Shown here in pieces: positions 26,560 through 64,000 of a stretch of DNA of 64,000 nt (position 1 is its first letter; each line of letters opens with the position of its first letter). Under the pieces are notes generated by a model. That model was not told where the DNA came from and did no database searches. It saw nothing but the letters and a program-made list of their open reading frames with translations. Source of the stretch: a virus; the UHGV virus genome UHGV-1421865; one strand, written 5' to 3'. Both the position numbers and the translations under genes were made by a program.

Positions 26560-27157
26560 ATTGTGGGTAGTTAAAGATTAAAATAGTAGTGTCGTCGATG
26601 CGATTTAGTACCGGGAATGTTAACGTAGACTTTGTAGATGCCTTCTTAACAGTGCCTTTGCCAGTAACGATAACAAAATCACCGGGTTGGACGCTACTGT
26701 CATCACAAAGTACGTAGCATTTACCTAAGATATTCACTTGTCGCCATTCCTGCCGTGTGCTACGAGGCATATATATGGCACTGTCATCGTAATCTGGGTG
26801 TTTAATAGGTGTGTATTCAACATCCTTTACGGTTGTCATAATCGTCATTTCCAGTACCGGGTCGTAGACTTTCTGACCGCGCAAGATGTCTTTTCGTTCC
26901 ATATACGGGTCCCCCATACCGTTTGCACACCATTTCAACGGGTGTTCTTCTGGGTCGTCGGAGACATATTCCCCGTTCATCGCTGTGAACCCTAAGAAGA
27001 AACCACCGGTATACGGTTCTATCTTACCGGGTTCTGTCTTCGACAGCTGTACCGGTGTACCGTAAGGGAGCGACCCTGTCAGATCGCTCCTTATCTCGTA
27101 CATCTCACAGACACCGAATTTATGAACAAAATCCTGATAGTCTATAATGTTTTTCAT
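26531..27157 (-). CDS. Hypothetical protein
   Basis: 208-aa ORF. Confidence 0.45.
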   Translation of the reverse strand: MKNIIDYQDFVHKFGVCEMYEIRSDLTGSLPYGTPVQLSKTEPGKIEPYTGGFFLGFTAMNGEYVSDDPEEHPLKWCANGMGDPYMERKDILRGQKVYDPVLEMTIMTTVKDVEYTPIKHPDYDDSAIYMPRSTRQEWRQVNILGKCYVLCDDSSVQPGDFVIVTGKGTVKKASTKSTLTFPVLNRIDDTTILIFNYPQYERTGRTKT

Positions 27158-27160
27158 GTA

Positions 27161-27562
27161 TTATCCCAGTAGCTGTTTCTCTTCCTTGGTTCGTAGCATA
27201 TCGAGGGGCATATACTCCCAGTATGTCGTCATCATTTCCGAGAAGGCATTGTAATCGAAATCCTTAAAGACTTCCATTACCAACATCGGATTATTGTAAG
27301 CATTCTCCGCAGCGATGTCGATACCGTCCTGTACCAGTACATTGTGTTCGTCGGGGTGTTGTTTTGCCATACCGACATACAGTACGTACTTCGGCATTTG
27401 CCCGTCGATCTTATAAAGATTACCGACAAAGGTGACAGCCTGCTCTCTTCCGGTTTTGTAGTACTTGCGACCGGCAATAACTACCGGCTTCAATACTTCA
27501 CGGTTCTCTGTCAGAGATGTCCAGCTGAAGGACTTTACAAATTCTTTTGATACGTCGATCAT
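27161..27562 (-). CDS. Hypothetical protein
   Basis: 133-aa ORF. Confidence 0.45.
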   Translation of the reverse strand: MIDVSKEFVKSFSWTSLTENREVLKPVVIAGRKYYKTGREQAVTFVGNLYKIDGQMPKYVLYVGMAKQHPDEHNVLVQDGIDIAAENAYNNPMLVMEVFKDFDYNAFSEMMTTYWEYMPLDMLRTKEEKQLLG

Positions 27563-27582
27563 TATAATTTATTATTAAAAAG

Positions 27583-28815
27583 TTAAAAAAGTTCTAGTTG
27601 TACAGCCTCTCCGACTTCACAATCCGGTAGCTGCATTGTTGTCATAAAACGATTAAGCGGAATAATCACCGTCTTGTCCCATTGAATTGTTCTGTTCGGT
27701 ACCGGTGCCCATTCCGGCAACTCACCCTGTGGGAATGCAAAATACTGTCCTTTGTCGAATTCGTAGTATTTAATCTTCCCGGATGTCGTCTTCAGGAACT
27801 TCTGGTTGTTTTTGTACGCCAGATGGTTATAGCGAGCGATACCATGAACACTAACGGGACAACGTTTTTCGAGTAACAACATCTCTTCGTCGTCTATAAC
27901 ATATTTCTTATAGTTACCGATACCGACGCTCGACGAAATATCCTGTACCGGTGCCGTCATGAACTCGTCGCGGTACTTTAACAGTTTCTTGTTAAATTCG
28001 GTTAAGAAAGTACTTTTATCGCTCACATTATAGTCGAACATCAACATCTTCACCATATCGGTAAGGATTTTACGCGACAGCTGTGGCGTCGTCGACTTGA
28101 TGATTTCGATACCGGTACCCGATACCTTCGGACTGTCCAAGAATTTACCTTTATTAAAGACGAGACCTTTGATGTATTTCTTCTTCTTTAGATAAATACA
28201 CGACTTGGAAATTGTCTCAAGCTCAAATTCATGGATGCTAGTTGCATGACGAGGTTTGTAAATCGCCTCGCACCATTCGTTATTCAGCTTATTCTGGAAT
28301 TCTGTATTATAACGAAGAATCCATTCTGTCTTTGCTCTGTCGGACTTGTACAGTTCTTTGTATTCCGGTGTCATACACTCGAAGAACGTACCGTAGCTGA
28401 CATATACCGAATCGGTATCGGAGAACACTGCGACCTGTTGTTGTCGATACCAGTCGTGTTTAGACTCGTCCAGAGCGAAATTAAATTGTTCCCATAGGTC
28501 GTACCGTGTCCAGATGGTCTCATGGAACCACTCTTGCATATTGTGCCACATCGTTTGTGTTAGATGCCGACACTCACCGGTAATGTCACCTGCCAATTCT
28601 ACGTTATAAAAATAGAATCCTGGATTTCCACTCGCACCGTATGCCCCGTTACCGGCCAATTTCTTAGACAATTCGAACATGGTATAGTCGTGACGGAGGT
28701 CTTCGACCTTGTCCCGTAGTTCTGTTAGCTCTTCCAACGACATATTTGCCATCGCCTCTGGTGATGTCTTCAATACGTCAGAAATAATTGTCTTGATGTC
28801 GGGAGAAAATTCCAT
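27583..28815 (-). CDS. Family-B DNA polymerase, C-terminal (palm/thumb) portion only
   Basis: Motif B-like KKLAGNGAYGASGNPGFYFYNVELAGDITGECRHL (compare KxxxNSxYG...YYD...AxxITxxGR) and motif C VFSDTDSVYV (YGDTDS). Neither an exonuclease domain nor motif A (DxxSLYPS) is present in this ORF or in the adjacent ORFs. Confidence 0.7.
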   Translation of the reverse strand: MEFSPDIKTIISDVLKTSPEAMANMSLEELTELRDKVEDLRHDYTMFELSKKLAGNGAYGASGNPGFYFYNVELAGDITGECRHLTQTMWHNMQEWFHETIWTRYDLWEQFNFALDESKHDWYRQQQVAVFSDTDSVYVSYGTFFECMTPEYKELYKSDRAKTEWILRYNTEFQNKLNNEWCEAIYKPRHATSIHEFELETISKSCIYLKKKKYIKGLVFNKGKFLDSPKVSGTGIEIIKSTTPQLSRKILTDMVKMLMFDYNVSDKSTFLTEFNKKLLKYRDEFMTAPVQDISSSVGIGNYKKYVIDDEEMLLLEKRCPVSVHGIARYNHLAYKNNQKFLKTTSGKIKYYEFDKGQYFAFPQGELPEWAPVPNRTIQWDKTVIIPLNRFMTTMQLPDCEVGEAVQLELF

Positions 28816-28887
28816 TTTAGATATGTAGTAGTATTCTATATTATTTAGTGTTTAACACCAGAGCCTATAGAAAGATTCTACAGAATA

Positions 28888-29226
28888 TCACATAAGACCC
28901 AGTGTGTTCGGTACCTTACCGTTCGTTACCGGCGTCGGCATACTGTTAATCACAGCCACCTGTGCGACCGGACTGCCTGCTGTCATGATAGTACCGTAGA
29001 TCTGCGCGTTTTTAACGTAATAGTCGATTGCATTTGCAATACTAGACGCCAGCGGCTGTGATACAAGTTCGTCAAAGGTATCTGCAAAGCGTTGTGCTTT
29101 CTCTTCTGCGAGTTTAGATTTACCGAATTGACAATAGTCTTGTAATACACAGTGCCGGATAGCGTCTTTAAGGTATTTGCTAAATGCAGCTTTTAATTGC
29201 GATTCTAGCGCACTTGCATTTAACAT
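28888..29226 (-). CDS. Hypothetical protein
   Basis: 112-aa ORF. Confidence 0.4.
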   Translation of the reverse strand: MLNASALESQLKAAFSKYLKDAIRHCVLQDYCQFGKSKLAEEKAQRFADTFDELVSQPLASSIANAIDYYVKNAQIYGTIMTAGSPVAQVAVINSMPTPVTNGKVPNTLGLM

Positions 29227-29253
29227 GTTGAATATCAGATATTTATTAACTCG

Positions 29254-29703
29254 TTACTGAGCCATTACAAAGTCACAAAATTGACGAAGGTATTCGTAGT
29301 CTGCTTTGTCTACAGTACCTTTGGTATCATAAAGATACTTGATGATCCAATGTCCGTACTTAGAAGGGGTCAGTACAGGTGAGCTGCAGTCACACTTAGC
29401 GTACGTGTTGTTGTCACAAGTCTTCAGTCGAGCGAGGACATCAATGTTATTTTTGAGGATCTTATCGAAACTATCTTGTGACGACTTGTCGTCCTCAGGC
29501 TGGTCTTTTTCTTGACTGATACCGTCATCGTCAGCATCGTCGTTGCAACCGAACACCTCTGTAAGCAATGCGACAAGTGCATTTTGAAGTGCTTCAAATT
29601 CTTGTTTCACTTCTTTATGTTCATTTACATTGTCCTTTTGTTGTTCTTGTTTGGACTGTTCTTGGTCGCTTTGAAGTAAATTAAAAAGTTCGTCGAGTGT
29701 CAT
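29254..29703 (-). CDS. Hypothetical acidic protein
   Basis: 149-aa ORF. Confidence 0.45.
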   Translation of the reverse strand: MTLDELFNLLQSDQEQSKQEQQKDNVNEHKEVKQEFEALQNALVALLTEVFGCNDDADDDGISQEKDQPEDDKSSQDSFDKILKNNIDVLARLKTCDNNTYAKCDCSSPVLTPSKYGHWIIKYLYDTKGTVDKADYEYLRQFCDFVMAQ

Positions 29704-29708
29704 AATTT

Positions 29709-30056
29709 TTACTGATTTAGTTTATAAAAGAAATTAAGTTTATAGTTGTTGTTTTCGTCGCGGTTTCGTTCCGTCATAGAACGATCGGCTTCGTTGATTT
29801 GTTCTTCTGTCCACGGCCCGTCTCCGTTTGCGTCGTAGAACTTGCCGTCTCTGTATTGAAACGTCGCTTCGTAGTCAGGTTCCCAGTTACCCGGTGAGTC
29901 TATCTTCATCAACGTCCAAAATCCAGGTGTCTTTATATCTCGAAGAAGTTTTGCTACTGTCATATTTTTTATATAAACTAGTGAACTACTTAAGAGTTTT
30001 ACTACTGTATTACTATTTGTTAAATAAAAGTACCCAAGATACCGAATACAACACAC
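29709..30056 (-). CDS. Hypothetical protein
   Basis: 115-aa ORF. Confidence 0.45.
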   Translation of the reverse strand: MCCIRYLGYFYLTNSNTVVKLLSSSLVYIKNMTVAKLLRDIKTPGFWTLMKIDSPGNWEPDYEATFQYRDGKFYDANGDGPWTEEQINEADRSMTERNRDENNNYKLNFFYKLNQ

Positions 30057-30211
30057 AACAAAGTAATAGCGATAGCGATGATAATTACACTTGATATGCT
30101 GTTAATAAGTAGACTAATACCTTGCCATAGGAGTCCGAACACAAAACCGGATACTTTGAAGAATACCCCGATGCCTACAACAAATAATAGGATGAAAAGT
30201 AGAACTGACAT
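30020..30211 (-). CDS. Small membrane protein with two predicted TM helices
   Basis: 63 aa, strongly hydrophobic: LLFILLFVVGIGVFF...IIIAIAITLLCVVFGILG. Confidence 0.4.
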   Translation of the reverse strand: MSVLLFILLFVVGIGVFFKVSGFVFGLLWQGISLLINSISSVIIIAIAITLLCVVFGILGTFI

Positions 30212-30246
30212 ATTAAATAGTCTCTTTTATTTGTATTCGGTTATTA

Positions 30247-30483
30247 TCAACAGTCATCACCAGACCAGTATTGTGGTCCGAAGTAGCTGTTTACACTACG
30301 ATCCATAATTGCCTCTGTTTCTTCGGGGTTGAACATGTTATAATGTTCTGCAGCACCCGGCTCGTCCATGTGTTTAAGATAATTGTACGTGTCGTGAACA
30401 GTCCATTGTTCGTATTCGTCGCACGTATCGATGATAGGCTTGAAGTATTCAATGTCGCTGAGAAGAGAACTGAGATTAATCAT
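30247..30483 (-). CDS. Hypothetical protein
   Basis: 78-aa ORF placed the right distance downstream of a minus-strand promoter that carries the conserved spacer. Confidence 0.45.
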   Translation of the reverse strand: MINLSSLLSDIEYFKPIIDTCDEYEQWTVHDTYNYLKHMDEPGAAEHYNMFNPEETEAIMDRSVNSYFGPQYWSGDDC

Positions 30484-30519
30484 GACTGTAGCACTTTAAC
30501 TGTTTGACTTGTTTGTTAT

Positions 30520-30556
30520 ATATGTAATATAGCGTACTTTGTGAGCAAAATCAATA
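30520..30556 (-). promoter_or_regulatory. Sigma70-like promoter (TTGATT-N17-TATATT) with the conserved TCACAAAGTA spacer
   Basis: On the minus strand: TTGATTttgctcacaaagtacgcTATATT. Confidence 0.55.
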
Positions 30557-30571
30557 CAACCACATAGAAAG

Positions 30572-30835
30572 TTAGTCCTTGAAGAGCATTAGTTTGTCGG
30601 ACAATACTTCCGTCTTGTATTTTATATCACTGTGTTCGATGACAGTAGCCGCGTCTATACTACAAGTTTCTAAGTCAGTAGCCTGCTCCTCTGTTATAGG
30701 TACAGTAGTGTATTCCGGTTGCTCACTGTCTGTACGCTGACACAAATACAGCCGGTTGTCTTTCGAAGACCGACAATAGAACTCTATCGGTTCGTCGTAG
30801 AAACATAAAATCTTAATCTTACCTAACTGCTCCAT
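30572..30835 (-). CDS. Hypothetical protein
   Basis: 87-aa ORF. Confidence 0.45.
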   Translation of the reverse strand: MEQLGKIKILCFYDEPIEFYCRSSKDNRLYLCQRTDSEQPEYTTVPITEEQATDLETCSIDAATVIEHSDIKYKTEVLSDKLMLFKD

Positions 30836-30854
30836 CTTTATCTTGTTTTATATA

Positions 30855-30888
30855 CTTTATATAGTACATGATGTATACAAAATCAGTG
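30855..30888 (-). promoter_or_regulatory. Sigma70-like promoter cTGATT-N17-TATATAAA; its spacer is not the conserved one
   Basis: On the minus strand: cTGATTttgtatacatcatgtacTATATAAA, upstream of the gene at 30572..30835. Confidence 0.4.
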
Positions 30889-30984
30889 CAATTTTGACGG
30901 TTTCTGTTTCGCATACTGGTATGTATAAACGTAGAATCGTAATAAAGCCACCATATTCGTCCTCTGTCGCGTCCGAATGGTCTA

Positions 30985-31040
30985 GCCTTGGTACTACTAA
31001 GCCTCAACAAAAATCGTGCGATAGAGGAGAGATTTTCTCA
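30985..31040 (-). repeat. Conserved element, copy 4: a partial half-element in minus orientation
   Basis: ggtactactaagcctcaacaaaaatcgtgcgatagag is the reverse complement of the gcacgatttttgttgaggcttagtagtacc half found in copies 3 and 5. Confidence 0.6.
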
Positions 31041-31058
31041 AGTTTTTTAATGTTAACA

Positions 31059-31097
31059 AAAAGAACACTTGTACGGTTAGCTGTACAAGTGTTCTTT
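31059..31097. terminator. Hairpin terminator after the 1110-aa gene
   Basis: Perfect inverted repeat aagaacacttgtac / gtacaagtgttctt immediately after the gene's stop codon. Confidence 0.65.
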
Positions 31098-31103
31098 ATA
31101 GTA

Positions 31104-34100
31104 TCAAAGTTTATAGCGTTTATTGACAGTTATTGATATAATATAGTGTTCTAGTTCTTTTAAGAGCGCCGGACGAATATCGAAAGCCAGTGTCTTGCTG
31201 TAGCTCTCTTCTAAACCGTTGTCCTTAAACATATAGTCCATTACGAGAGGTATAGTAATGTCCTTGTTGGAATCTATCGTGCTATATTGGTATTTATCGT
31301 ATTTGTTACATTGAAGCGACTCGACATCTTTCAATTCAAGATAAAGTACCGCACCGAACATCTTAGATTGGAATTCAGTACCCGGTCTACTGTTCTTCGC
31401 CGGATTCTTGATCTTATCCGAAGACGTGACCGGAATATCCACATAACGATAAATATCGGATATTGTATTATATACAAATGTATCTAAAAAGTCCCCGTCG
31501 TCGTACGTTAGGTTGTCTAAGTTATTTATCACATCGACGTTTTCCGAAGCTGTATTGTTTTTATCTAATACATTGTCGTTTTTAAGTACCAATTTATCGT
31601 CTTCTTTCACTAACGACAGTACTTTATTAGTCGCTACATTTATAATACCGTCACTGACATAACTTAAGATGCTGTTTTTATCGCCTATTCTGTACCGATA
31701 CGGCAACGACAGCTGTTGTTTGCTTTCAAGTATCCTATCTTGTGTGGCAATATCGTACCTTAGTCTATCTTTCTTCTCCAACGTCATATTTTTGCGATAC
31801 ACAGCCAAGTCTTTCATTCGTTGCTGCGGACTGTCGTAATAATAAGATTGATGGGTGTACGGATCCGTTGTTCTAAAATAGATAAATTGTCCCAACGTTT
31901 GTGCACGTGCTGTTTTAGTATCGTCTTTTATATGAAACGGTGTTCTTTCGTAGTCGCCTATCTTGTATTCGTAATAGTCTGCGTTTGTACACAGTAACGG
32001 TATCTTCACGTCGCCCGGAAATATACTATACAAATTCAAGTTTGTATCGTTCTCGTTTTTTATAACAAGATTAAATCGTTTTTGTGCATACCCCGATGTC
32101 AGTTCTTCGTGGTCGAACGAGATATAAGCCCGGTTATTACGATGTAGTTCTACTTTCTTGTCGTCGTATTCCAGGTACACCTTCAGATTAGAATGTAGCT
32201 CCGATTCGATAAGAGCTTTGTACTGTTGTAGTTCAGAATTCAGATCTGTTAGTTTATCCTTTAACGACAACATTTTACTGTCCTTGTCCATAAATCCGGA
32301 ATAGATGTTCTCCGGTGTATGATAGAACTTACGGTCTTTGGCTAAAATCTTATCGTCGACATGTTCTTGATAACCTTCGTTCAGTAGGTGCCGTATAAAG
32401 GCGGACTCTATTAAATCGGCGTTATTTTGTGTAACAATGTTGTATATACTGGTAACGTCGGCGTATTCGTGAGGGAACTGAATGACGAATTCTTCGCTCC
32501 ACGGTGTATATAAATCGATAAACGGTTGTCCGATAGAGTATTTGTATCTGAAACGAATCGTAACGTCTTCACCGACGACGATAGGAATATCCAGTTGGTT
32601 CCATCGTACACCGACGTCTTGCCCTTCTTTGAAGACTGGTTTGTATGCCCCGGTGACACTGTCGAAGACAATAGAACGTTCTCTTTCTATATTATACTGT
32701 TTATTCCATACCGACAACGATGTCTCGCCTCGCGTATTGATACCGGTAATAGCTGTGTTGTTAGAACTTGTATTCGAATACTTGTATTCTATATCTAAAG
32801 CGATAACATTGATTTCTTCGTTGTAGGTATCTTTTAACGCCAGTTCTAATGTATCGTACGCAGTAACACCACGGACAGCGAATTTAGGACTTTCAAAACC
32901 GTAAACGTCGTCTTTTATGTTATTGATATTGTCTATAATAGAAATATACTGTTTCTGGAGCGCGATTCGGTCTGTGTATTTCTTGTCGATTTCCTTCTTT
33001 AGCTCCGTCGCATTTGTAGCACCTTTCAGTATTTTGGTCTGTGTATCGTCGATACTACTTTGCAACGCCGTTAATGACGCGTTGATGTTCTGTTTTTGTT
33101 TATGTAAGTTAATAACGTCTTTAGAACTGTTGTCGTCGATAAGGTGCTTGTTTATCTGCACAACTTGTACATTATCTCGAACAAAGGTAGCACTAACAAT
33201 ACTTTTTATGGTATCAGAAGTTACTATCTCACTGATAATGAAGTTGTTAAAGTTACGAATAGACGGGTAGGCTACTTCTGTTAGTCCTAATATAATATCG
33301 CCGATGTTACGACAGTATTTTTTATAGTACTGAATGTAGTTCATACGAACATCGTTGTCGTACACATACTGGTTGTTTCTATCCTTTACAAAGACCTTTT
33401 CGAGGTCGACCAGGAACGGTTTACTGAACTCGCCGCGGACGTTATTGACAACCGAGCCGATAAAGACACAAATGTACCTGTTTTCTTCCAGTGGGATGTC
33501 GACGTATCTAAATTCCGAAAAGCTTTCGTTATATAAGACAAAATACATATCCTTGTCCTCGTTAATAGGTTGAAGGACTGTGTGGCCGATTTCCTCTTCT
33601 ACCTCTATATAGAACTTTTTATCGTCGCGATTACTGTTTTCTAATTTAGTTATCTTATATATAACATTACGGCCCGGAATAGTCAGCTTATCGCCGATGC
33701 GAAGGTACTGCTCTATGGCGTTATCTTCTGTTCCGGTGTACTTAAAGGTATTTATTCTGATACGATAGGTGTTATTTAGTCCGTCGATATGAGTGTTGTC
33801 GAGACGGGTTACGTCCAAGATCTCGAATCGACTGTCGTACTTGTTGTATTTTGTCGGCGCGGTGATGTGTGCGTCGTATTCGTCGTAATCGCGACCTGGA
33901 ACATAGTTGAACAGCGCTTGTTTGTATTCTTTGTACGACTGTAGATTGTTCCCCGACAGCAACGTAAAGAGTTCCTGACTGTATATTACAATCTTTTTAT
34001 ATACATATTCGTTTATCGTATCAGGAATGTTCTGAACATTCAGTCGAAGGTACATATACGGCGATACAAGGTCTTTGAGGAAATTGTTATCGCGGATGTG

Positions 34101-36007: not shown

Positions 36008-36922
36008 TTATAATATAGAATAAATCAAAGATTCTGTTCTGTTCTGCCACTGTCCGGATTTAATACTTCTTCTGATAGGTATATATTCTATTTTGTATCG
36101 TTTGTCGTTATATAGTGTCTCGAAGAATTTATCTGAGCCACTCGTATCGGAATTCGACTGTACCGTACACCCGCCGTTACTTATAATGTAATCTGATAAT
36201 TCTTTAATTTGTTTTTGACAAGAGTCGTCAAACGAGTTAGCGGTATAGCTACTGTATTCCGAATTGGTTTTGACTACATAATACGGTGGGTCGAAATATA
36301 CAAACGTCTTTTCGTCTTTGTTGTATACTTCTTTTAACAGACTATTAAAGTCTTTATTGTACAGTTCTGCTCTTTGTAGTAACGTAGAACATTCCTTAAG
36401 TGTATCAACATCAAATACAGCTGGATTCTTTTTACAACCGTGAGATACATTATATAAACCTTTTGAGTTTTCTCTGTACAGGCCATTGAATCCTGTCTTA
36501 TTAATGAACATAAAAAGTGCAGCGGACCGTACTGTGTTTTTAGGTTCTGCATTGTACTCGTCCCGACAGCGATAGTACATGTCTTCTCTGTCTGTACTAC
36601 CAAATTCATAACCTACATATTCTAATCTAAGATCAGTAAGTAAGTCAATCAAAGCATCTACATTGTCTCTAATTTGTTTATATACGTTAATAAGACCGGT
36701 ATTGACGTCATTTATCACGACACGCTTACAGTTTTTATAATGTTTTAGTATATAAAGCGACAATGCAGCGCTGCCGGCGAAAGGTTCTATAAAAGTGAAC
36801 TCCGGTGAGTTTAATATGTCTTTGTTTGTATGTGACAGTATAGTATCGATAATAGTATGTTTAGAACCGACCCATTTCAACACTTTCGGAATATCTACTT
36901 TATATTGTTTTATATCATTCAT
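36008..36922 (-). CDS. dam: N6-adenine DNA methyltransferase of the Dam / D12 class
   Basis: KWVGSKH (compare KWAGGK), EPFAGSAA and DPPY motifs appear in the order expected for Dam-family methyltransferases. Confidence 0.8.
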   Translation of the reverse strand: MNDIKQYKVDIPKVLKWVGSKHTIIDTILSHTNKDILNSPEFTFIEPFAGSAALSLYILKHYKNCKRVVINDVNTGLINVYKQIRDNVDALIDLLTDLRLEYVGYEFGSTDREDMYYRCRDEYNAEPKNTVRSAALFMFINKTGFNGLYRENSKGLYNVSHGCKKNPAVFDVDTLKECSTLLQRAELYNKDFNSLLKEVYNKDEKTFVYFDPPYYVVKTNSEYSSYTANSFDDSCQKQIKELSDYIISNGGCTVQSNSDTSGSDKFFETLYNDKRYKIEYIPIRRSIKSGQWQNRTESLIYSIL

Positions 36923-36942
36923 GTAACTTAATTTACGAAGTT

Positions 36943-37443
36943 TTAACCACGAAGTGTTATTATTCTCTGATTGACAGAGCCTCTAAACTTTAAGTTCAAG
37001 TCTTTCTGCGACTCTTCGAAACGCCCGTCGACTAAGGTACCGATATAGTCCAAATACGGTCGACACAGTTCGTTCTGTTGTAAGTCTTCTAACAAATAAC
37101 CTGTCCATACCCATACGTCGGTAGTGTACTTGTTAATTAGTTTGAACAGTTCTAGTACGTCTTCAGAAGCCTGCACATGCCCGTTCCATGCGTGGTAGAA
37201 AGGATCACCCCCTAAGATAGATACTTTTACAGGTGTCGACGTATATGATTTTAGAAGAGACTCTATATAAGGTAATTTGTCTGTCAACAAATCCCCTTTA
37301 TTCGGGTCCCAGGTATGTGGTGACCAACACCCTTTACAGGCATTAGAACAACCACTCAACCATATCGACAGTCGAATACCCGGACCGTTCTGTACGTCGT
37401 ATTTATGAATTGCTAAGACACGTGATTGCATTGTATCTGTCAT
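36943..37443 (-). CDS. nrdG: Anaerobic ribonucleoside-triphosphate reductase activating protein (radical SAM)
   Basis: CX3CX2C cluster (CSNACKGC) plus [30 protein letters not shown] and FRGSVNQ, which are collinear with E. coli NrdG motifs. Confidence 0.8.
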
Positions 37444-38731
37444 CTTGATTTGGTATTATTTGATGTAGTTCGAATTGCTCGGCAAATTCCTTAACTTCCG
37501 TCTTAATAGCCTGCAAGGCATCGTCGTCATTCCACTTGTCGATAGCACGCACGATAAAGTTAGCGACCCATACCATATCCTCTTCGTCCATACCTCTTGT
37601 TGTTAGAGCTGCAGTACCAATTCTGATGCCAGATGTTTGGAACGGACTTCGCTTGTCGTACGGTATCATGTTCTTATTAACGGTGATACCGGCTTTTTCT
37701 AATGCGATTTCTACCTGCTTTCCTGTAAGGTCGGGATGTGCGTACGTTAGGTCGACCAAGAAAGAGTGATTGTCTGTACCACCCGACACAATTCGTTCAC
37801 CCCAGTGTTGTAGACTTGTAGCCAACGCTTGTGCGTTCTTAATTACTTGCTGTGCATATAATCGAAATTCTGGTTCACAAGCCTCTTCGAAACATACGCA
37901 TTTCGCTGCGATGACATTCTCCAACGGACCGCCTTGAATACCAGGAAAGACCATACTATCGATGACTTCCGACATCATTTTTACGCTGCCGTCTTTCTTT
38001 CGTAGACCTTTAGGATTTTCAAAGTCTTTTCCCATCAAGATAATACCGCCACGAGGTCCGCGCAATGTCTTGTGTGTCGTCGATGTTACAATATGTGCGT
38101 ACTTTACAGGGTTACTCAAACATTTACCGGCGATAAGTCCCGCGGTATGTGCCATATCGACAACAAGGACCGCACCGATACTATCGGCGATCTGTCGAAG
38201 ACGTTCCCAGTCCCATTCTCTGGAATATGCCGACGCACCTGTCATAATCATTTTGGGACGATGTGAGGTAGCTAACAATTCTAATTCGCTGTAGTCTACA
38301 CGTTCTGTGTTGGGGTCTACATGATACGGAATAGGTTTGTAAAGCATACCAGACAGATTAACAGGAGAGCCGTGAGTAAGGTGGCCGCCGTGTGCCAAGT
38401 CGAGACCTAAGAATTTATCACCTGGTTCCAGTACAGCATTGAAAACAGCCTGGTTCGCTTGAGACCCAGAGTGTGGTTGAACATTGGCATACGTCGCATC
38501 GAACAATTTACAAACAGTATCAATAGCTCGTTGTTCTATTTTGTCTATTACTTCACAGCCACCGTAGTATCGTCTGCCGGGATAACCTTCAGCGTACTTA
38601 TTAGTAAGTACAGAACCCAAGGCGTACAATACGCCATTCGATACATAGTTTTCTGAGGCAATCAGTTCGAGACCGAACAGCTGCCGCTGAGTTTCGTCTA
38701 ATATAAGATCGTATACATTTTTTTCAAGCAT
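37403..38731 (-). CDS. glyA: Serine hydroxymethyltransferase
   Basis: [26 protein letters not shown], a PLP-lysine context ([12 protein letters not shown]) and GHLTHGSP all say SHMT. The 3' end overlaps the nrdG start by about 41 nt. Confidence 0.9.
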
Positions 38732-42189: not shown

Positions 42190-42642
42190 ATGAACAAAAG
42201 AAGATACAAAGAGTACAGTGTTGTTATAAATACGAATCCAAATAATTCCGTACTAAATTACGAGTACGATCCGGAGAAGAACATTCATATAACAAACATC
42301 GGTTCGGGTACATTCTATAAAACTTACTATAAAAAAGAACTAGTCAACACCGGTACAGCCAATACTGGTACAGTCAACACCAATACGAACAACACTACAG
42401 TCTACCCGACGTCACTAACCGACGTTTTTAATAAGTACAAAACCGAACTAGAAAATGACAAGTTAAATGCCTATCGACTGTACAACAACGTCGATGAGGA
42501 GGCTATATTAAAGGTAATAAAGAACGGTAACGGACATATTTATCTTAAAAGAATGCCCTCCGGTCACTACTACGACGACACTGTTATCGACCGTCTCGAA
42601 CTATTACTGACAAATACCGAAAATGATGTCAAAAATAAGTGA
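42190..42642 (+). CDS. Hypothetical protein
   Basis: 150-aa ORF. Confidence 0.45.
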   Translation: MNKRRYKEYSVVINTNPNNSVLNYEYDPEKNIHITNIGSGTFYKTYYKKELVNTGTANTGTVNTNTNNTTVYPTSLTDVFNKYKTELENDKLNAYRLYNNVDEEAILKVIKNGNGHIYLKRMPSGHYYDDTVIDRLELLLTNTENDVKNK

Positions 42643-42647
42643 TTTAT

Positions 42648-42690
42648 TTGTTGTTTCGATCTATTATATAAATAGATTTATTTGTAACTA
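42648..42690 (+). terminator. Possible hairpin terminator
   Basis: atctattatataaatagat inverted repeat after the stop codon. Confidence 0.35.
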
Positions 42691-42707
42691 ATTCAGAACA
42701 ATATAAC

Positions 42708-44606
42708 ATGGGAAAAATTCATATCACAGACTGGTCACGCGACGTGTGTGGAGAATACCAGGCAAAAGAAAAGGAACGTCATGAACGCGAAGACGAACAG
42801 TATCATTTTGCTGCAAAGCATTACGAGGAAGAGAACCCCAACCATATTTCCGACGAGGAGTTTTTGAAAATGATTCCTTATAAGATAGTACATCTCACTA
42901 ATAACAAGTTGTACTATGCCGTTTCGTTTGCCGCTATCCTTCAAAATATGCAAGGACAGGTGAATCCGTTTGATACTTTCTTTTTGCTTATCGACAATAC
43001 ATGGGACGCAAACAAACGATTCGGTTTCTTCCCGTTCTTTAAGCGACTCGCAAAGGCCAAGGACTTCAATGAAGTATCGACGATTCTCCGAAATAAACTC
43101 GACTACATCAAAAATTATGAATTCGGTTTTTATGTAGCTCCGATGGAACGTCACCTCGAAGTTATCTATATGGATAAAGACTCGTTTAAGATGCCGAACC
43201 TCACCGGTGATACCCCCCAGTACGAAGACGGTGTTGATTATAAGAAGATTTTACCTAAAATGGTTACACCGCGCGGTGACAAATTTACGAACAAGACGAT
43301 TGAAGAACAGATTAAGTTAGGTGTAGTACCGGAACTCTCCACCGATTTCGTCGGACGAACTATTCCCGCTATTTCTGAAGAAGCAGAACGACTAATCGCA
43401 GAACGTAACGCTCGCCGTGCTACAGATGTGCCTCATACTGTTTCTGACAGTGCTGTTGATACTACTAATGATACAGCCGGTGATACACTCAATGATACAG
43501 TACATGATACTACTAAAGATGCTGATTTACAAGCCGTTAACTCAACCAATAATGTAAGCGGTGATACAGTAGATGATACAGTCATTGATACAACGACTGA
43601 TATGTCGACGACGACGGCCACTATTAAAGACACTAATATAGTTAACAATACAGGCCGTACAAGTTCAGTACCAGATACCGATGTAGGACATGTCGATAAC
43701 ACAGTTGTAGACAGTAATAGAGACGATACAAGCGCAAAACAAGTACCGAAACTAGTATTGCCGGGTATTAAAATGGAAAGTTTGTATATCGACGATCAAT
43801 TTACATTGAATCAAAAGTATAAATTGCTAAATATCACGTTAAGTAATGCTATATTAGAAGCTCGTAAAAACGGACTGGTATTTTCCAAACAAGACTTGTT
43901 GAACCTTAATAAGACGTTTAATAAAACAATACTAGATAATATCTTGGACGACCCGGAAGAAGGGCCACCCAAGACACCGAAGACGGACTTTTATCGGTCT
44001 ATAATGTCTTATTATAAGAACAACAAAACAGACTGTGTCGTACTGGGTCTACAACAACTGGAGACTTTTAAGAATGCCAAGGCACCCCCTACAGATAGAT
44101 CAAAGTTCGACAACAGTATGCCGAAACGTGCCGGGTGTGTGACAATGGTACAACCCACACCGATGCAACCAAGCCCGACAGTGCAAGTTTCGTGTACGGA
44201 GCAGTACAAAAAAGACATGGATGAGGCTTACAAGAAAATGTTAGGTGACTGTGAATTTTATTGTATGTTTATAAATCCTGTGTTGAACAGTATGCTGCAA
44301 CAACTTTTAGGGGACTATATAAAAGCTGTATCACAAAATCCAGAATTTGCAGATCCCAATTCGTCCAGTGGTATACAAAAGTGTGCATCTAATTATACGA
44401 ACAATGTAAATAGATGTCCTGACATTTGTAAGTCACAGTTTATGACGGGTGCCGTACAATATCAAGTACAGTTCAATGCAATCAGTACAGTAACTGCAAT
44501 GTCAGAACTATTAAAGCGTATTGCTAGTGGTGAAAGCCCGATGGACATGTGTAATTCATTTATGATTACCGGTACGCAGTTCGCAGACTTTTTGTTACAG
44601 CACTAA
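42708..44606 (+). CDS. Hypothetical protein of 632 aa with a Thr/Asp-rich low-complexity repeat region
   Basis: Degenerate repeats DTxxDT (VDTTNDTAGDTLNDTVHDTTKD...) in the middle, and a Cys-rich C-terminus. Confidence 0.5.
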   Translation: MGKIHITDWSRDVCGEYQAKEKERHEREDEQYHFAAKHYEEENPNHISDEEFLKMIPYKIVHLTNNKLYYAVSFAAILQNMQGQVNPFDTFFLLIDNTWDANKRFGFFPFFKRLAKAKDFNEVSTILRNKLDYIKNYEFGFYVAPMERHLEVIYMDKDSFKMPNLTGDTPQYEDGVDYKKILPKMVTPRGDKFTNKTIEEQIKLGVVPELSTDFVGRTIPAISEEAERLIAERNARRATDVPHTVSDSAVDTTNDTAGDTLNDTVHDTTKDADLQAVNSTNNVSGDTVDDTVIDTTTDMSTTTATIKDTNIVNNTGRTSSVPDTDVGHVDNTVVDSNRDDTSAKQVPKLVLPGIKMESLYIDDQFTLNQKYKLLNITLSNAILEARKNGLVFSKQDLLNLNKTFNKTILDNILDDPEEGPPKTPKTDFYRSIMSYYKNNKTDCVVLGLQQLETFKNAKAPPTDRSKFDNSMPKRAGCVTMVQPTPMQPSPTVQVSCTEQYKKDMDEAYKKMLGDCEFYCMFINPVLNSMLQQLLGDYIKAVSQNPEFADPNSSSGIQKCASNYTNNVNRCPDICKSQFMTGAVQYQVQFNAISTVTAMSELLKRIASGESPMDMCNSFMITGTQFADFLLQH

Positions 44607-44623
44607 GTGCATTGTGAATAAAT

Positions 44624-45076
44624 ATGCTAATAAAAATGCAATCATTACAGAATTGGGTAGATACTAGGCAGTCTATCACAAAACCTAAGATAACCGGTGA
44701 CAGATACTGTTTATTGTACGACGAATACAAAGATGTCACGACAGAAACCAATACCCGTCACCGTGTGTACAGAATATGTGCTATTATCGATATGCCGGAA
44801 ATCGATGTTTATAAAGGCGACGTCGGTGGTTATATCGAAGAGGAAGCTAATTTAGACAATGACGAACTAAGCGGTAACACACCGTGGATATACGACGATG
44901 CCATGGTATACGCCGGTGCTCGTGTTACAGACTATGCTACAATTCACGATAGTATAAAAATAGTAGGCAATGTCTTGGTGTCCGGTTCGAGTGTGCTGGA
45001 AGGTGATGGTGTACTACAAAACTTCAAACCCGAAAGAACAGAGTTCTGTGACATGTTTATCAATCAAAATAAATAA
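44624..45076 (+). CDS. Hexapeptide / beta-helix repeat protein; paralog of the ORF at 61717..62511
   Basis: GDVGGYIEEEANL...WIYDDAMVYAGARVTDYATIHDS closely resembles GDKGGWIQTEENL...WLYNDAKVYDDAKV in the other ORF. Confidence 0.5.
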   Translation: MLIKMQSLQNWVDTRQSITKPKITGDRYCLLYDEYKDVTTETNTRHRVYRICAIIDMPEIDVYKGDVGGYIEEEANLDNDELSGNTPWIYDDAMVYAGARVTDYATIHDSIKIVGNVLVSGSSVLEGDGVLQNFKPERTEFCDMFINQNK

Positions 45077-45085
45077 GACCAACAA

Positions 45086-45904
45086 ATGTCCGATAGACTA
45101 CAAAACAAAGAAAATACGGACTTAAAACGAATCAAGAAGTGGGTAAAGCCGTGGAACAAAGCAAAGTTCGACGACTTGTACGATAGAGACGATAGATTCT
45201 TTGCTGTTATCACTAAGGGCATACTGTCTTATCTAAATGAACATATCGTTCTGTACGACAAATCTATCAATCATTTTATCTTCAATACAGGTTCGTCCTA
45301 TCTTTATATAGAGAAGAACGGTTATCAGTACAAGATGAACGAAGTAACCGGAGAGGACAATCTGTATATGAAGATGCCCCGCGGTATGGTAGAACTATCT
45401 AGTATTTCTGTTGATACTGCCGAACTGAGTAATCCTTTCGTAAGAGGACAGTACGAACGACTTAACGGCGACGTGATACAAGGATTCAATGCGACGATGC
45501 GACGTCTTCCGATAGAAATAAGTATGGAAATAAAGTACGTGCTTAGTAATTACAACGAGTCGATAGTATTGTTACAAGAACTGTACGACAAGTTGATATT
45601 CCAACGGTACTTTTATATAACATATTTAGGTGAAACAATTCAGTGTTCGATAGAGTTCGGTACCGACGCGAAACCTGAGTTTAACAAAGTTGATCTAACG
45701 TCGACGGATGTCAATCAACGTAATTTGACTATCGGTATCAAAGTAGCTACAAATTATCCGATTATAGACGAACGAACAGAGCTACTTAATGATATGATAA
45801 TTGATAATGGCACCAGGCAACAAATGACTATCAATCATAACAATGCCGATACTGGGCAGCATACAACAGACAAATTGCCCATAAGAAATATAGATAGAAC
45901 TTGA
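45086..45904 (+). CDS. Hypothetical protein
   Basis: 272-aa ORF; its TGA overlaps the ATG of the next gene. Confidence 0.5.
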   Translation: MSDRLQNKENTDLKRIKKWVKPWNKAKFDDLYDRDDRFFAVITKGILSYLNEHIVLYDKSINHFIFNTGSSYLYIEKNGYQYKMNEVTGEDNLYMKMPRGMVELSSISVDTAELSNPFVRGQYERLNGDVIQGFNATMRRLPIEISMEIKYVLSNYNESIVLLQELYDKLIFQRYFYITYLGETIQCSIEFGTDAKPEFNKVDLTSTDVNQRNLTIGIKVATNYPIIDERTELLNDMIIDNGTRQQMTINHNNADTGQHTTDKLPIRNIDRT

Positions 45905-48900
45905 ATGATAACTAATATAGATAAATTTAGTAATCTTAGATTCATTACGTCGTCGTTAAATCCGCTGGAGCTTATTGGAAAGGTATTAAAGGATGCACAA
46001 AACAGTATTATAATAAATACCTACGGAGGTCATATCGGTATCTTTGTTTGTGACGGTGTCGGTAACATCCAACGTGCAACGGCCGAATTTTCTAATGACT
46101 TCAATATCGACGGTAATGTCGCGTCTATATCCGGTGCGGTAAATGAGTTGAAACAACAAATCAAGGACCTTAGAGATGCTTTCAATAAACTAAGTGAAAA
46201 TGGAGGTAATGTTCATGTACCGTTGATTACCAATCCTCCGCTACCGAAACCGGTTGATGTGAACTTATCTACTTCGAATGTTGTTATATTGGGGGATGAA
46301 GTGGCAAAAGTCACGATTACAGTCAGGTACGATAAGAACATTCGTTTTGATAGCGATGTAATTACACCGTCTATACATAAGAAGCACAGTGATATTCGGA
46401 CTGGTCTAAAGCTGGAGAATAGAGGTAGCAATACATGTCAATATACACTAACCATTTCTAAAGGCGATGCTACAGTCAGTAATAATACTATAACGGTTAA
46501 TGTAGGTGATCTGCACGCTAGGTTAGATGTAACTGTAACCAGACAAAATGATGTATTAGCTAAAATAACAAGATTACGTGTCACACCGGATAAAATAGTA
46601 TTTAATAACGATAATCAGTCGGCAATTATAAAGGTACATAAAGACTTATCGGCGGGTACCCAAAATATCAATCAATTAAAGACAGAAATTATCTCTTCCT
46701 CTGGTATAACAATTTCTAAAGTTGAATACAGCGAGCAAGTCGATAAGTACTATGTATCGGCTTCCGGGGGTGGTGGTACAGTAGTCTTCGGTGTGGCCGA
46801 TAGAAATTGGAATCCGGGTGTAGATAACACAAGTATTTCTATTACCGATAACAGAACAGTCGTTACACCGTCTGTAGTTCCAACACCCCCAACACCGAAA
46901 GCATTGCGTCGTATATCGAAGGTGATAGTAGAAGGTAATACTGGTATTGCTAATTCAGTACAATTCAAGGCAGGTACAGTTAAGACATTTAAGTATACTG
47001 CAGACTATGTAGGTGAACAAGAAGACGACTATACTAATAACATCTATATTGCATCTAAGGACGGTATCACAGTTGAAGTAGACAAAAAAACTAAAACAAT
47101 TACGTTCACTACACCGCGCACTTTAAGTGCTAAATCAGATGTCATATTTGACGTAATGTCTAATAACAAAGTAGTAGGTACAATACATGTTAACGTAACG
47201 GCACTTGAAATTCAACGTATATCGTCTGTAAGGGTAAACAACGGTGAACCTATAAGTATCACAGCGGGTACCGACAAGAAAGTATCGTACGAGATTGTGT
47301 CTTATAATGGCGAACTACCTGATAACGATACTAATAACATTGAGATTGCATCTAAGGATAATATAAACGTTACAGTAAATACAAAAGAAAAGACGATTAC
47401 ATTCCATACGGAAAGGACTTTAAGTGCTAAACAAGTCGACTTTGATATAACATCTAATAACAAAGTAGTAGATACAATACATGTTAATGTTAAGGCACTG
47501 CCTCTTAGACGTATAACTAAGATAACGGTAAATACTACTAATTCAGTACAATTCAAGGCCGGTACAGACACTACTGTTAACTACACTGTAACATACAACG
47601 GTAGCCCAGAAGACACTATTAGTGACAACAATACAGACAACATCGAGATTGCGTCAACACCCGACGTCATGGTTGGTATAAATCCTGTAGGAAAACAAAT
47701 TATGTTTAGTACAGAAAGCAATCTGGGTAAAAAATCAGTCGACTTTACTGTAACGTCGAACGGGGAAATAGTAGGTACAGTGCATGTTGATGTGACAGCT
47801 CAAGAGCCTCGACGTATAAGTGAAGTCCGAGTAAACGACAATAAACCGGTAAGTATCACAGCGGGTACCGACAAGAAAGTATCGTACGACATTATAGCTT
47901 ATAAAGGTGAACTACCAGATAACAATACAGACAACATTGAGGTTGTATCACCGGACAGTAGCATCACTGTTAAAGTAGACAAAACAAATAAGTCAATTAC
48001 GTTCACTACACCTCGCACTTTAAGTAGCCAATCGCATACCTTTAATGTGACATGTAACGGTAATAAAGTAGGCACAGTAAATGTTAACATTACGGCATTG
48101 CCAATTAGACGTATAACTAATGTAAGTGTAAACGGTGGTAGACCTGTAAGTCTCGCGGCCGGTGACGGTACTACTGTGGACTATACTGTAGCATACAACG
48201 GTAGCTCAGAAAACACCAATAGTGACAACAATACAGACAACATTGAAATCGTATCAAAGGACAATATCAATGTTATATTAGACCCTCGGAGAAAAAAAAT
48301 CACGTTCAGATTATCGCTCGATGTAATAAGTGCTAAATCGGTTAGCTTTGATATAATGTCTAACGGTACGAAAGTAGGTGAGGTAAATGTTGTGTTGCGT
48401 TATAATATAGTTCTTAAAAACGGATTAGGTGAGAATCCTATGATTCTGGTTCAGAATAGACGTGTCGCATTATCTGACTTAGCAAAGATTACCGGTACCT
48501 ACGGTACGCTTAAATACAAGTCATCTGTCTTTGCTTTAGAGAATCTTGATAATGAGTTGCAGTTTACAGAAAATGAAAACAAGCAGGGTACAGTTACGCT
48601 TTATGTAAAGGAAGACCCGACAGTCGAAAAATCGTTTACCGTTAAAATGTATAAGGCTTCGAGGGCAGAGATATATGCAGACGGAAAAGATTTAACAAGC
48701 GGTGTATTACGACGTGATCTACCGTTACAGTTAGCTACTAGATTTATTGACGGTGGTGTTACATTCTTTAATGATACCAATACGTTTAGAAAAGAAGTTA
48801 CATGGTCAGTTGAAAATGTCCATGGTAATACTAAAGTTGTAGATGCAATAGATCAAAACGGTCAGTTTAGAGTAGACAATGCTAGTGAATATAATATAAC

Positions 48901-50710: not shown

Positions 50711-50720
50711 TGTACAGAAC

Positions 50721-51173
50721 ATGGGATTTGATATTAAAACGTTAAAACCGAATAAAAATGGTCGATATAAACAAGGTTATTTAGATAAATCACAATGTAA
50801 GAAATTAGTATGTGAAAATAATGAGCCTGTTATATATCGTTCCGGTCTGGAATTAAAGTTTATTAAATACTGTGAGACGAATCCGCTGATCAAACGTTGG
50901 GGGTCTGAAATAATCAAAATAGATTACTACAACCCCCTTCGTGAGAAGATGTGTGAGTATTTTCCGGATTATGTGATAGAACATACCGACGGGCAGAAGT
51001 TTATTGTTGAAATTAAACCGTACGAGCAAACCAAGAAGCCACGGAAGAAAGCGTCACAATGGTTGAAAGAGCAATATGTTATCAACGTTTCTAAATGGCG
51101 TGCAGCTCAGGCATACGCTACGGCAAATAACGTTAAGTTCGTTGTTGTCACAGAACGGTTCTTCGGTCACTGA
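50721..51173 (+). CDS. Possible PD-(D/E)xK-fold nuclease-like protein; start moved to the internal ATG
   Basis: FPDYVIEHTDGQKFIVEIKPYEQ looks like a D...E.K core. This is tentative. Confidence 0.35.
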   Translation: MGFDIKTLKPNKNGRYKQGYLDKSQCKKLVCENNEPVIYRSGLELKFIKYCETNPLIKRWGSEIIKIDYYNPLREKMCEYFPDYVIEHTDGQKFIVEIKPYEQTKKPRKKASQWLKEQYVINVSKWRAAQAYATANNVKFVVVTERFFGH

Positions 51174-51193
51174 TTTTTACTATTGAAAAAATA

Positions 51194-51229
51194 AAAAGAG
51201 ACTGTGCAGTTACTTGTACAGTCTCTTTT
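51194..51229 (+). terminator. Hairpin plus T-run terminator
   Basis: agagactgtgcag...ctgtacagtctcttttttg. Confidence 0.6.
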
Positions 51230-51250
51230 TTGTCAACTTATCAAAACATA

Positions 51251-51400
51251 CAAAAATTTGCTCTGTATCGCATTATTTTTCTTAGCCTTGGTGTAACTAA
51301 GGTCACTACATTTGAGTGCGTCAGAGGGCCTTAAAAGTGCCTTTATGAAGACGTAGGGTATTTACATACCAGTATGCAAAACAGAAACAACACAAAAACT
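51251..51400 (+). repeat. Conserved element, copy 6, between convergent terminators
   Basis: tttgctctgtatcgcattatttttcttagccttggtgtaactaaggtcactacatttgagtgcgtcagagggccttaaaagtgcctttatg...cagtatgcaaaacagaaacaacac. Confidence 0.8.
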
Positions 51401-51428
51401 ATAAAATTAGATTGAAATATAAAGAAAA

Positions 51429-51466
51429 AAGACTGTACAAGTAACTGTACAGTCTCTTTTTAGTTT
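51429..51466 (-). terminator. Hairpin terminator after the minus-strand gene at 51465
   Basis: agactgtacaagtaactgtacagtct with a flanking T-run on the minus strand. Confidence 0.55.
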
Positions 51467-51938: not shown

Positions 51939-51950
51939 TGTTTTATATTA

Positions 51951-52424: not shown

Positions 52425-52510
52425 TATCTTAAAGTATATATACGTTACTATATAAATAATCCGAATACGCCTGATTTTTGATATATAAGATAAATTATAG
52501 TATAAACAAG

Positions 52511-55595: not shown

Positions 55596-55604
55596 ATGTA
55601 AGTG

Positions 55605-63059: not shown

Positions 63060-63560
63060 TCATCTATATCCAAATAACTGTCTCATAATCCTATTTAATT
63101 CATCAACACGGTCAGACGACATTGCGTCATTGTTAAATTTTGGTTTATATGACTCCATTATAGGACAGTTATAGAACATACCAGACATATCTGTCACATT
63201 AGAAACGTCCCACTTAGACAAGTCACGGTTGAATTTGATACAACAATCAAACATGTTTTCCATGTTAGTCACATTAGAGACGTCCCACTTAGACAAGTCA
63301 CAGTTGAATTTTAGACAACCACAAAACAGGTGGCGCATATTTGTCACATTAGAGACTTCCCACTGGTCTACTTTAATGTTACCAATGGTAATCATACCAA
63401 ACAACATAGACATGTCTGTTATAAGCGACGTATCGATATGATTCAAATCGGCATCCGGACCTTGCCGCTTAATTTCTTCCCAGATAATGTCTCTGAGTTC
63501 GTATTTTGTTGTTGGTTTTATTGTTAATGATCTCGCATTTGATGTAATGTGAATCGGCAT
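63060..63560 (-). CDS. BspA-type LRR (DUF285-like) protein, paralog 2
   Basis: Three units of FxCDLSKWDVSNVTxMxxMF. Confidence 0.65.
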   Translation of the reverse strand: MPIHITSNARSLTIKPTTKYELRDIIWEEIKRQGPDADLNHIDTSLITDMSMLFGMITIGNIKVDQWEVSNVTNMRHLFCGCLKFNCDLSKWDVSNVTNMENMFDCCIKFNRDLSKWDVSNVTDMSGMFYNCPIMESYKPKFNNDAMSSDRVDELNRIMRQLFGYR

Positions 63561-63576
63561 AGTAAAACTGTGTTAA

Positions 63577-63933
63577 TCAATAAAATTTTGGTTGCAGTTC
63601 CGGTGTCATATTAGGACAATCCTCAAAAATACCATCATATCGTTCTACATTGCTAACATCCCAACCAGACAAGTCACACTTGAAATTTTGATTTGTAAAC
63701 ATGGCGATCATATTCGTGACATTGGATACGTTCCATTCGTCTATCTTAATGTTTCCAATCTCAATCCACCAAAACAACATAGACATATCTGTAATAAGCG
63801 ATGTATCGATAAAGTTCAAATCAGCATCGGGACCTTGACGTTCCAATTCTTGTTCTATAATAGACCTCAGTTGTTTTTTCGATGTTGGTTTCAGTCTTAA
63901 TAATTTGCTGTTAGATGTGATGTGAATTGGCAT
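63577..63933 (-). CDS. BspA-type LRR (DUF285-like) protein, paralog 3
   Basis: MPIHITSN...QGPDADLNFIDTSLITDMSMLF...WNVSNVTNM. Confidence 0.65.
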   Translation of the reverse strand: MPIHITSNSKLLRLKPTSKKQLRSIIEQELERQGPDADLNFIDTSLITDMSMLFWWIEIGNIKIDEWNVSNVTNMIAMFTNQNFKCDLSGWDVSNVERYDGIFEDCPNMTPELQPKFY

Positions 63934-63938
63934 GGCTA

Positions 63939-64000
63939 CATAAATTTAGGTTTTAGATCATCTGTCATCTTGTCACAAAACGTGAACATACCTGCTGCAT
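63939..64000 (-). CDS. Partial CDS: C-terminus of a fourth BspA-like paralog; its 5' end is beyond the window
   Basis: Hand translation ends ...AAGMFTFCDKMTDDLKPKFM*, matching the YKPKFK / LQPKFY C-termini of the neighbouring paralogs. Confidence 0.5.

Follow-up and report, generated by a model that had tools for sequence, protein, structure and literature searches.

A probable two-subunit family-B DNA polymerase encoded by widely separated genes in a T4-like jumbo phage

A 64,000-nucleotide stretch of the virus genome UHGV-1421865 (hereafter the window, meaning the whole stretch at its full length) encodes on its minus strand, at 27583..28815, a 410-amino-acid (aa) protein that resembles the C-terminal half of a family-B DNA polymerase (PolB). 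The stretch comes from a large tailed phage; genes for a T4-type portal (592-2466, minus strand) and a large terminase (4370-6223, plus strand) lie on it. Does the open reading frame (ORF) belong to a working replicase, and where then is the rest of the enzyme? We put at roughly 87% the probability that it encodes the C-terminal subunit of a two-subunit replicative PolB of a T4-like jumbo phage, broken at the fingertip, with the N-terminal half encoded 35.9 kb upstream and the two proteins assembling non-covalently.

The C-terminal half and its conservation

The gene starts with an ATG and specifies the second fingers helix, the C-terminal part of the palm and the thumb. Its product (the C-half) spans fingers helix P with motif B, motif C, a KKxY motif, the thumb and a C-terminus resembling a clamp-binding tail, corresponding to about residues 526-889 of RB69 gp43. 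Motif B (K52-L-A-G-N56-G-A-Y59-G60; 28636..28662, minus strand) lies in fingers helix P and aligns to the RB69 K560/N564 region, with G where S is usual in the KxxxNSxYG consensus. Motif C (S132-D133-T134-D135-S136; 28408..28422, minus strand) includes a catalytic aspartate and aligns to the RB69 DTDS at 621-624, and a KKKY motif of the KKRY type (residues 211-214; 28174..28185, minus strand) aligns to RB69 K705-K706-R707-Y708. The protein ends in QLELF (27586..27600, minus strand). A clamp-binding C-terminal tail is a feature of T4 and RB69 gp43, and by analogy QLELF is likely a sliding-clamp-binding peptide.

Several comparisons agreed on this assignment. Pfam DNA_pol_B matched the 410-aa ORF above threshold (expectation value E=6.7e-8) over profile positions 265-356 of 453. 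The match to phrog_1918, a 382-position PHROG 'DNA polymerase' family built of stand-alone C-halves, ran from end to end (positions 8-367, E=6e-44), whereas phrog_262, the full-length gp43 family, was covered only at positions 489-838 of 856. A phmmer search of PDB sequences paired residues 15-346 with RB69 gp43 526-827, and a family profile of 18 homologues paired positions 19-398 with RB69 529-889. An AlphaFold model built on the 18-homologue alignment had a mean predicted local distance difference test score (pLDDT) of 80.8; among PDB entries, Foldseek matched it best to RB69 gp43 chains (E~1e-12), with template modelling (TM) scores of 0.6 by query and 0.3 by target, as expected because the C-half is somewhat under half of the enzyme. 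The initial annotation, which had read the ORF as a PolB C-terminal half starting about 50 aa ahead of motif B and containing motif C as SDTDS, was thus borne out by the Pfam, PHROG, RB69 and AlphaFold/Foldseek comparisons.

The C-half belongs to a conserved family. Protein databases held 466 homologues at E<=1e-5, and nearly all of the best 120 of these were 408-425 aa long and 54-61% identical to it. In an alignment of 18 homologues (55-61% identity) the start (MEF...), motif B (K52, N56, Y59 and G60), motif C (D133-S136), KKKY and the terminal Q..LF (Q406, L409 and F410) were invariant. Invariant motifs across homologues this divergent make a pseudogene unlikely. At least 8 contigs, drawn from several samples and including Logan assemblies, carried the identical protein with the same neighbours. 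Contigs bearing members of the 90% cluster of this protein were 205-228 kb long, which suggests a genome of about that size, and GenBank lists two members of the cluster under 'MAG TPA: DNA polymerase [Caudoviricetes sp.]'.

The N-terminal half and the point of breakage

Within the window no partner was found. Pfam detected no exonuclease or PolB domain besides the C-half in the large window ORFs tested, and tblastn with the N-halves of phages PAU, pT24 and MA9V-1 against the 64 kb gave only matches with E>0.3. The three small ORFs directly upstream of the C-half (28888-30056) had no Pfam or PHROG polymerase match. The initial annotation had likewise seen neither an exonuclease or motif A partner nearby nor polymerase motifs in these upstream ORFs, and had advised a search of the complete genome for an ORF with Exo I-III and motif A.

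Such an ORF lies just outside. We reached it through the last gene of the window (63060-63560, minus strand), on the source contig ERZ772909 NODE_12 (187,286 bp), by reading 10 kb past the right edge (locus L123). L123:9561-16500 corresponds to window positions 64000-57061 at 99.99% identity, and identity between the window and NODE_12 was 99.99-100% over three separately fetched stretches. The two differ by 40 bp in the length of a repeat at about 57061-57109. The window edge that served as anchor (63060..64000, minus strand) holds DUF285-family genes and no polymerase sequence. Beyond it, on the minus strand, lies a gene for a 506-aa protein (the N-half), at 64719-66239 in extrapolated window coordinates, L123:7322-8842, or NODE_12 167115-168635. 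It begins 719 bp past the right end of the window and lies 35.9 kb upstream of the C-half, which occupies 130019-131251 of NODE_12, on the same strand.

The 506-aa protein contains Exo I (FDIETE), Exo II (GWNSYRFDWMY), Exo III (YNAVDSL) and motif A (YDFASLYPSQ), and it ends in ...QRIDSELLTYIDSLIKLKNNK. It comprises the N-terminal domain, the 3'-5' exonuclease, motif A and the first fingers helix. Pfam matched DNA_pol_B_exo1 (2.6e-15) and positions 18-135 of 453 of DNA_pol_B. The match to phrog_2062, a family of stand-alone N-halves, reached 1e-74; phrog_262 was matched at positions 90-482 of 856, and a profile of N-halves of the clade aligned to RB69 107-431 at E=2.8e-35. Catalytic and DNA-binding residues were invariant in the N-half family as well as in the C-half family. 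Thus Exo I-III and motif A are found in a separate protein and not in the polypeptide that carries motifs B and C.

Both halves are on one contig, as genes with separate start and stop codons, and the 83 kb that could be read of the roughly 220-kb genome contained a single N match and a single C match. ORFs on the plus strand (42190-54901) sit between the two minus-strand genes. The halves therefore share no transcript and belong to different transcription units. They do not have the adjacent (0-3 kb) N-then-C arrangement of gp43A/gp43B; this is a difference of layout and not of protein type. Of the explanations offered at first, a split PolB with its N-half encoded at another place, of the sort known from certain T4-like phages and archaea, is the one that these findings uphold. 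A degraded duplicate, also suggested then, is contradicted by the invariant catalytic residues of the 18 homologues and by the presence of a matching partner.

Other searches were less informative. Megablast of 20 kb of the window against a phage collection gave no match. The single C-half protein retrieved no related loci from IMG/VR, whereas an alignment query did find them. A protein search with a profile of distant N-halves was dominated by the clade of LR745206 and returned no match from the clade of the window phage, and a search of 1.8 billion representatives yielded 150 diverse N-halves, which were clustered and lay apart from that clade. The N-part of a fused homologue (L014), used together with a scan of JGI metagenomes, retrieved many N-halves of the clade but not that of the window species itself.

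L014, a 435-kb IMG/VR contig, encodes PolB as one fused ORF of 927 aa, and it locates the break. The N-half and C-half (506+410 aa) are colinear with the fused protein at 55.6% identity, and the junction aligns free of gaps: the N-half ends in ...IDSLIKLKNNK and the C-half begins with MEFSPDIKT..., against ...IDNILNHSNDH followed directly by IEFHQDIVD... in L014. Coverage of phrog_262 is complementary, with the N-half reaching position 482 and the C-half starting at 489, and the start of the C-half falls at about RB69 residue 512-526. Judged from these alignments, the break lies in the predicted loop that connects the pair of long fingers helices, the fingertip, with apparently nothing missing and nothing added.

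A junction without gaps leaves no split-intein fragments. Pfam found no intein domain in either half. Rfam at its gathering score found tRNAs only, and no intron, over the window; a permissive search (E<=1) around both junctions gave weak unrelated matches (E 0.3-0.8) and no intron model. The check for split inteins or group I introns at the break, which the initial annotation had recommended, thus turned up neither. Its suggestion of a polymerase interrupted by an intron, intein or homing endonuclease fails for the present state of the gene, given the gap-free junction and the lack of an intron model, but holds in part as a likely origin, because relatives carry a homing-endonuclease gene at the exact site.

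Related loci, subunit assembly and genomic surroundings

IMG/VR and JGI metagenomes were scanned with alignments of both halves, and about 100 loci of the clade were recovered, mostly from rumen and gut metagenomes as judged from contig names. The counts that follow are for this set, which is not dereplicated and is biased to relatives of the fused query. A fused ORF of 922-934 aa was present in about 43 loci, and about 9 more were fused with an intein in motif C (DTD/S...HN/S; for example L013). The gene was split exactly at the fingertip junction by an insert of 1.0-1.1 kb in 8 loci; it was split by 2.9 kb in one further locus and was bicistronic with a 14-nt gap in another. In two loci (L087:1398-4183, L099:1-2690) the order was swapped, the C-half immediately preceding the N-half on one strand across a gap of 17-20 nt. 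The N-half stood alone in about 35 loci, 16 of them with at least 5.6 kb of downstream sequence. Wherever enough sequence was readable, both halves occurred together. Inteins (PF14890) were also present in the protein homologues P0079, P0113 and P0116.

Insertions in motif C with intein-like ends (DTD/S...VHN/S) were seen at L013:6290-10840 and in L025, L034, L055, L062, L064, L074, L075, L107 and L109. In these loci the reading frame is broken at the insert, and a separate 415-aa ORF (phrog_22677) is nested in it. Such an insert may be a functional intein, a split intein accompanied by a free-standing endonuclease, or a decayed intein.

The gene inserted at the fingertip junction in L117 and L118 matched Pfam DUF7487, and the L117 copy matched the PHROG 'homing endonuclease' family phrog_3339 (8e-20). 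A DUF7487-type endonuclease homologue, 39% identical to the L117 copy (E=3e-60), directly follows the N-half of phage Lak-A1 (L009:4314-5354, genetic code 15); the Lak-A1 C-half is about 226 kb away despite the endonuclease gene still adjoining the N-half. Inserts at the exact junction in relatives, together with the Lak-A1 endonuclease, fit the model of Dassa et al. 2009 (PMC2677866), in which a gene is fractured and then dislocated. Insertion of a homing endonuclease is therefore the likely origin of the split: an endonuclease gene would have invaded, supplying stop and start codons, and the pieces would later have been dislocated.

The neighbourhoods of the N-half and of the C-half differ among species, which indicates repeated rearrangement. 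In dispersed relatives (L028-L035, L083, L111 and L113) the portal gene is no more than about 3 kb from the N-half, and the counterpart of the window gene at 45086-45904 is about 5 kb from it, whereas in the window species the N-half, the portal gene (592-2466) and the gene at 45086-45904 lie 20-62 kb apart. Large rearrangements are implied by this difference in spacing. A rough neighbour-joining tree, whose rooting is weak, put fused forms in the crown and dispersed ones, the window species among them, at the base.

How might the two proteins form one enzyme? The 506-aa chain would bring the N-domain, the proofreading exonuclease, the motif A aspartate and fingers helix N, and the 410-aa chain would bring fingers helix P with motif B, the motif C aspartate, KKxY, the thumb and the probable clamp-binding tail. 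Each half is without residues that the other supplies, so activity would need a non-covalent heterodimer. The proteins would be made separately and then assemble, presumably through an interface of the two antiparallel finger helices and a shared palm sheet, and catalytic aspartates from both chains would form a composite active site. That the halves of the window phage associate and reconstitute polymerase and exonuclease activity is argued from analogous systems. The 43A and 43B subunits of Aeromonas phage 25 co-purify and polymerise DNA, according to the summary of Petrov et al. 2010 in PMC2988022. Furthermore, separate fragments of Pfu PolB divided at the fingertip give a fully active enzyme when refolded, the C-fragment being soluble only in the presence of the N-fragment (PMC3061061).

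Several points weigh against this two-subunit enzyme. The sequence read amounts to only about 83 kb of a roughly 220-kb genome, so that a second full-length polymerase could lie elsewhere, and we infer the binding and activity of the two proteins by analogy. No endonuclease remnant was found beside either half in the genome of the window phage, which leaves the homing-endonuclease origin circumstantial in this lineage. In addition, the neighbour-joining tree, with dispersed forms placed basally, does not decide between fission and re-fusion.

Four other explanations were considered. The C-half might have a role of its own, with another partner or as a factor that binds DNA or the clamp. The neighbourhoods of the two halves are independent and poorly conserved across species, and a stand-alone 252-aa 3'-5' exonuclease of the DnaQ/RNase_T/ExoX-like kind, a conceivable partner, is encoded about 3.4 kb from the N-half (L123:3190-3948, about 69.6-70.4 kb extrapolated). 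We consider such a role very improbable, since from established PolB structure the catalytic aspartates of the C-half need motif A of the N-half for an active site, and since the halves co-occur wherever the sequence allows a judgement. It is more improbable again that the ORF is a redundant or decaying fragment while a separate full-length polymerase replicates the genome, even though so much of the genome lies beyond the part inspected and some jumbo phages have a second, Pol III-like polymerase (Iyer et al., PMC7824862). Motifs B and C, KKxY and the C-terminal tail would hardly be invariant in such a fragment, nor would the length be so uniform among its best homologues; the contig also encodes a stand-alone N-half, conserved to the same degree, that has neither motif B nor motif C, and relatives in the clade have a single fused gene.

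Joining of the halves after expression, through a split intein that trans-splices as in Nanoarchaeum equitans PolB or through RNA splicing, has slightly less in its favour still. Inteins are known in this polymerase family, as in the loci and protein homologues described above, and group I introns are abundant in related gut jumbo phages (PMC12880540), but the junction leaves no room for intein fragments against the fused homologue, neither junction gave an intron model or any but weak, unrelated RNA matches (E<=1), and 36 kb including genes on the opposite strand separate the halves. Least probable of all is that the separation is an artefact of assembly or gene calling. The source is a metagenome assembly; the same C-half with its neighbours on independent contigs, the agreement of the window with NODE_12 and the presence of dispersed halves in curated complete genomes (Lak and other huge phages) speak against an error. 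Split intein, intron, pseudogene and assembly artefact were rejected on the gap-free junction, the missing intron match, the invariant motifs and the independent contigs.

If the polymerase is indeed a heterodimer of separately encoded subunits, a more speculative extension can be drawn, which we regard as unlikely. Once broken at the fingertip, the halves might be freely movable genes that this clade has repeatedly split, shuffled (including C before N), dispersed and possibly re-fused, and separate transcription units may time or titrate assembly of the replicase or alter its nucleotide selectivity. Altered selectivity, if true, could be relevant to a phage whose DNA may be modified, as its genes include those for SHMT, DHFR and Dam; in Pfu, a split at the fingertip widened the range of substrates used.

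These findings bear on annotation. A 'half polymerase' on a phage contig should not be annotated as a pseudogene or taken as a sign of a missing intron. The replicase appears to be a heterodimer in several clades of jumbo and huge phages, with genes possibly tens to hundreds of kb apart, and pipelines for completeness or marker genes that assume a single PolB gene will mis-score such genomes. Within the gut and rumen clade one essential gene occurs fused, intein-bearing, split by an endonuclease, bicistronic, in swapped order and dispersed, a range that offers a natural series in which to study gene fracture by homing endonucleases and the later drifting apart of the pieces. Naturally split fingertips are also candidates for polymerases with altered tolerance of nucleotide analogues.

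Around the C-half, an AT-rich spacer of 72 nt (28816..28887, minus strand) separates its ATG from the preceding 112-aa ORF. Sequence inspection of this spacer revealed no Shine-Dalgarno-like sequence, the spacer had no RNA family match, and no terminator-like site was found within 27000-31200. Genes for PDDEXK_5 and DHFR proteins lie beside the 252-aa exonuclease gene, and at least 6 small paralogous DUF285 genes flank the N-half (window 62500-64000, continuing into L123:4842-10876). The window further contains many long ORFs without a family match and, at 36008-38731 on the minus strand, genes for serine hydroxymethyltransferase (SHMT; E=2e-156), a Fer4_12 radical-SAM-like protein and a Dam-type N6-adenine methylase; this cluster, with the DHFR gene outside the window, could hint at modified DNA bases.

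A tRNA array occupies 55523-61540 on the minus strand, with 16 tRNAs by Rfam and 14 by ARAGORN (Gln, Pro, Ser, Met x2, Lys x2, Asn, Thr, His, Leu x2, Ile(tat), plus one whose anticodon loop is unusual). Within this region, between the polymerase halves, lies an IS605-family TnpB/OrfB gene (59397-60251, minus strand, plus the next small ORF; L123:13310-14449). It is present as two ORFs, of 284 aa (HTH_OrfB_IS605 and OrfB_IS605) and 93 aa (Cas12f1-like_TNB), and may be interrupted by a stop codon or frameshift.

Comparison with known split polymerases

A close parallel is the split gp43 (43A/43B) of Aeromonas phages 25, 44RR, 31 and 65 and Acinetobacter phage 133 (Petrov et al. 2006, 2010), which is likewise broken at the fingertip between the finger helices and translated as two subunits. 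A homing-endonuclease gene separates the two halves in phage 25, whose subunits co-purify and are active (PMC2988022, PMC3061061, PMC2677866). In these T4-related phages, however, the 43A and 43B genes are adjacent (2 bp to about 3 kb) and in N-then-C order, whereas those of the window phage are 35.9 kb apart in different units, and the window polymerase is only about 20-25% identical to T4-like gp43. The jumbo phages PAU (gp105/gp110), Tenacibaculum pT24, PTm1 and Chryseobacterium MA9V-1 share the break point, and the window C-half is 24-27% identical to theirs; their halves lie two to four genes apart (about 1.2-4 kb) on the same strand.

Stand-alone N- and C-halves that are far apart occur in the Lak megaphages and in huge phages of 634-642 kb (LR745206, LR756502 and LR756504). 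The spacing is 101 kb in LR745206, on opposite strands, and about 132 kb in LR756502, about 282 kb in LR756504 and about 226 kb in Lak-A1, while in Lak-B6 the halves are about 6 kb apart with C upstream of N. These phages belong to another clade, with C-half identity of at most 31% and far larger genomes, and Lak phages have a recoded stop codon. In the literature searched we found no description of the dispersed PolB halves of Lak or other huge phages; the Jug-phage paper describes polymerase genes split by endonucleases.

Among archaea, the PolB of Methanothermobacter thermautotrophicus is also a two-subunit enzyme, with genes about 85 kb apart and no inteins (PMC3061061), but its break falls in the palm, about 83 residues beyond the fingertip position towards the C-terminus. 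Nanoarchaeum equitans PolB and the 'fractured genes' of Dassa et al. 2009 similarly have an essential replication gene in two genes, and dislocation is the last stage of that model (PMC2677866); their products are re-ligated through split inteins, whereas the break in the window phage has no intein residues. The engineered split Pfu polymerase is artificial, bicistronic and archaeal. Its split near the fingertip and its activity when reconstituted (PMC3061061) nevertheless lend direct support to the proposed heterodimer. The enzyme of the window phage is thus of an already known kind, a fingertip-split PolB; what sets it apart is the 36-kb separation into different units in a phage, within a clade that ranges from fused to dispersed forms.

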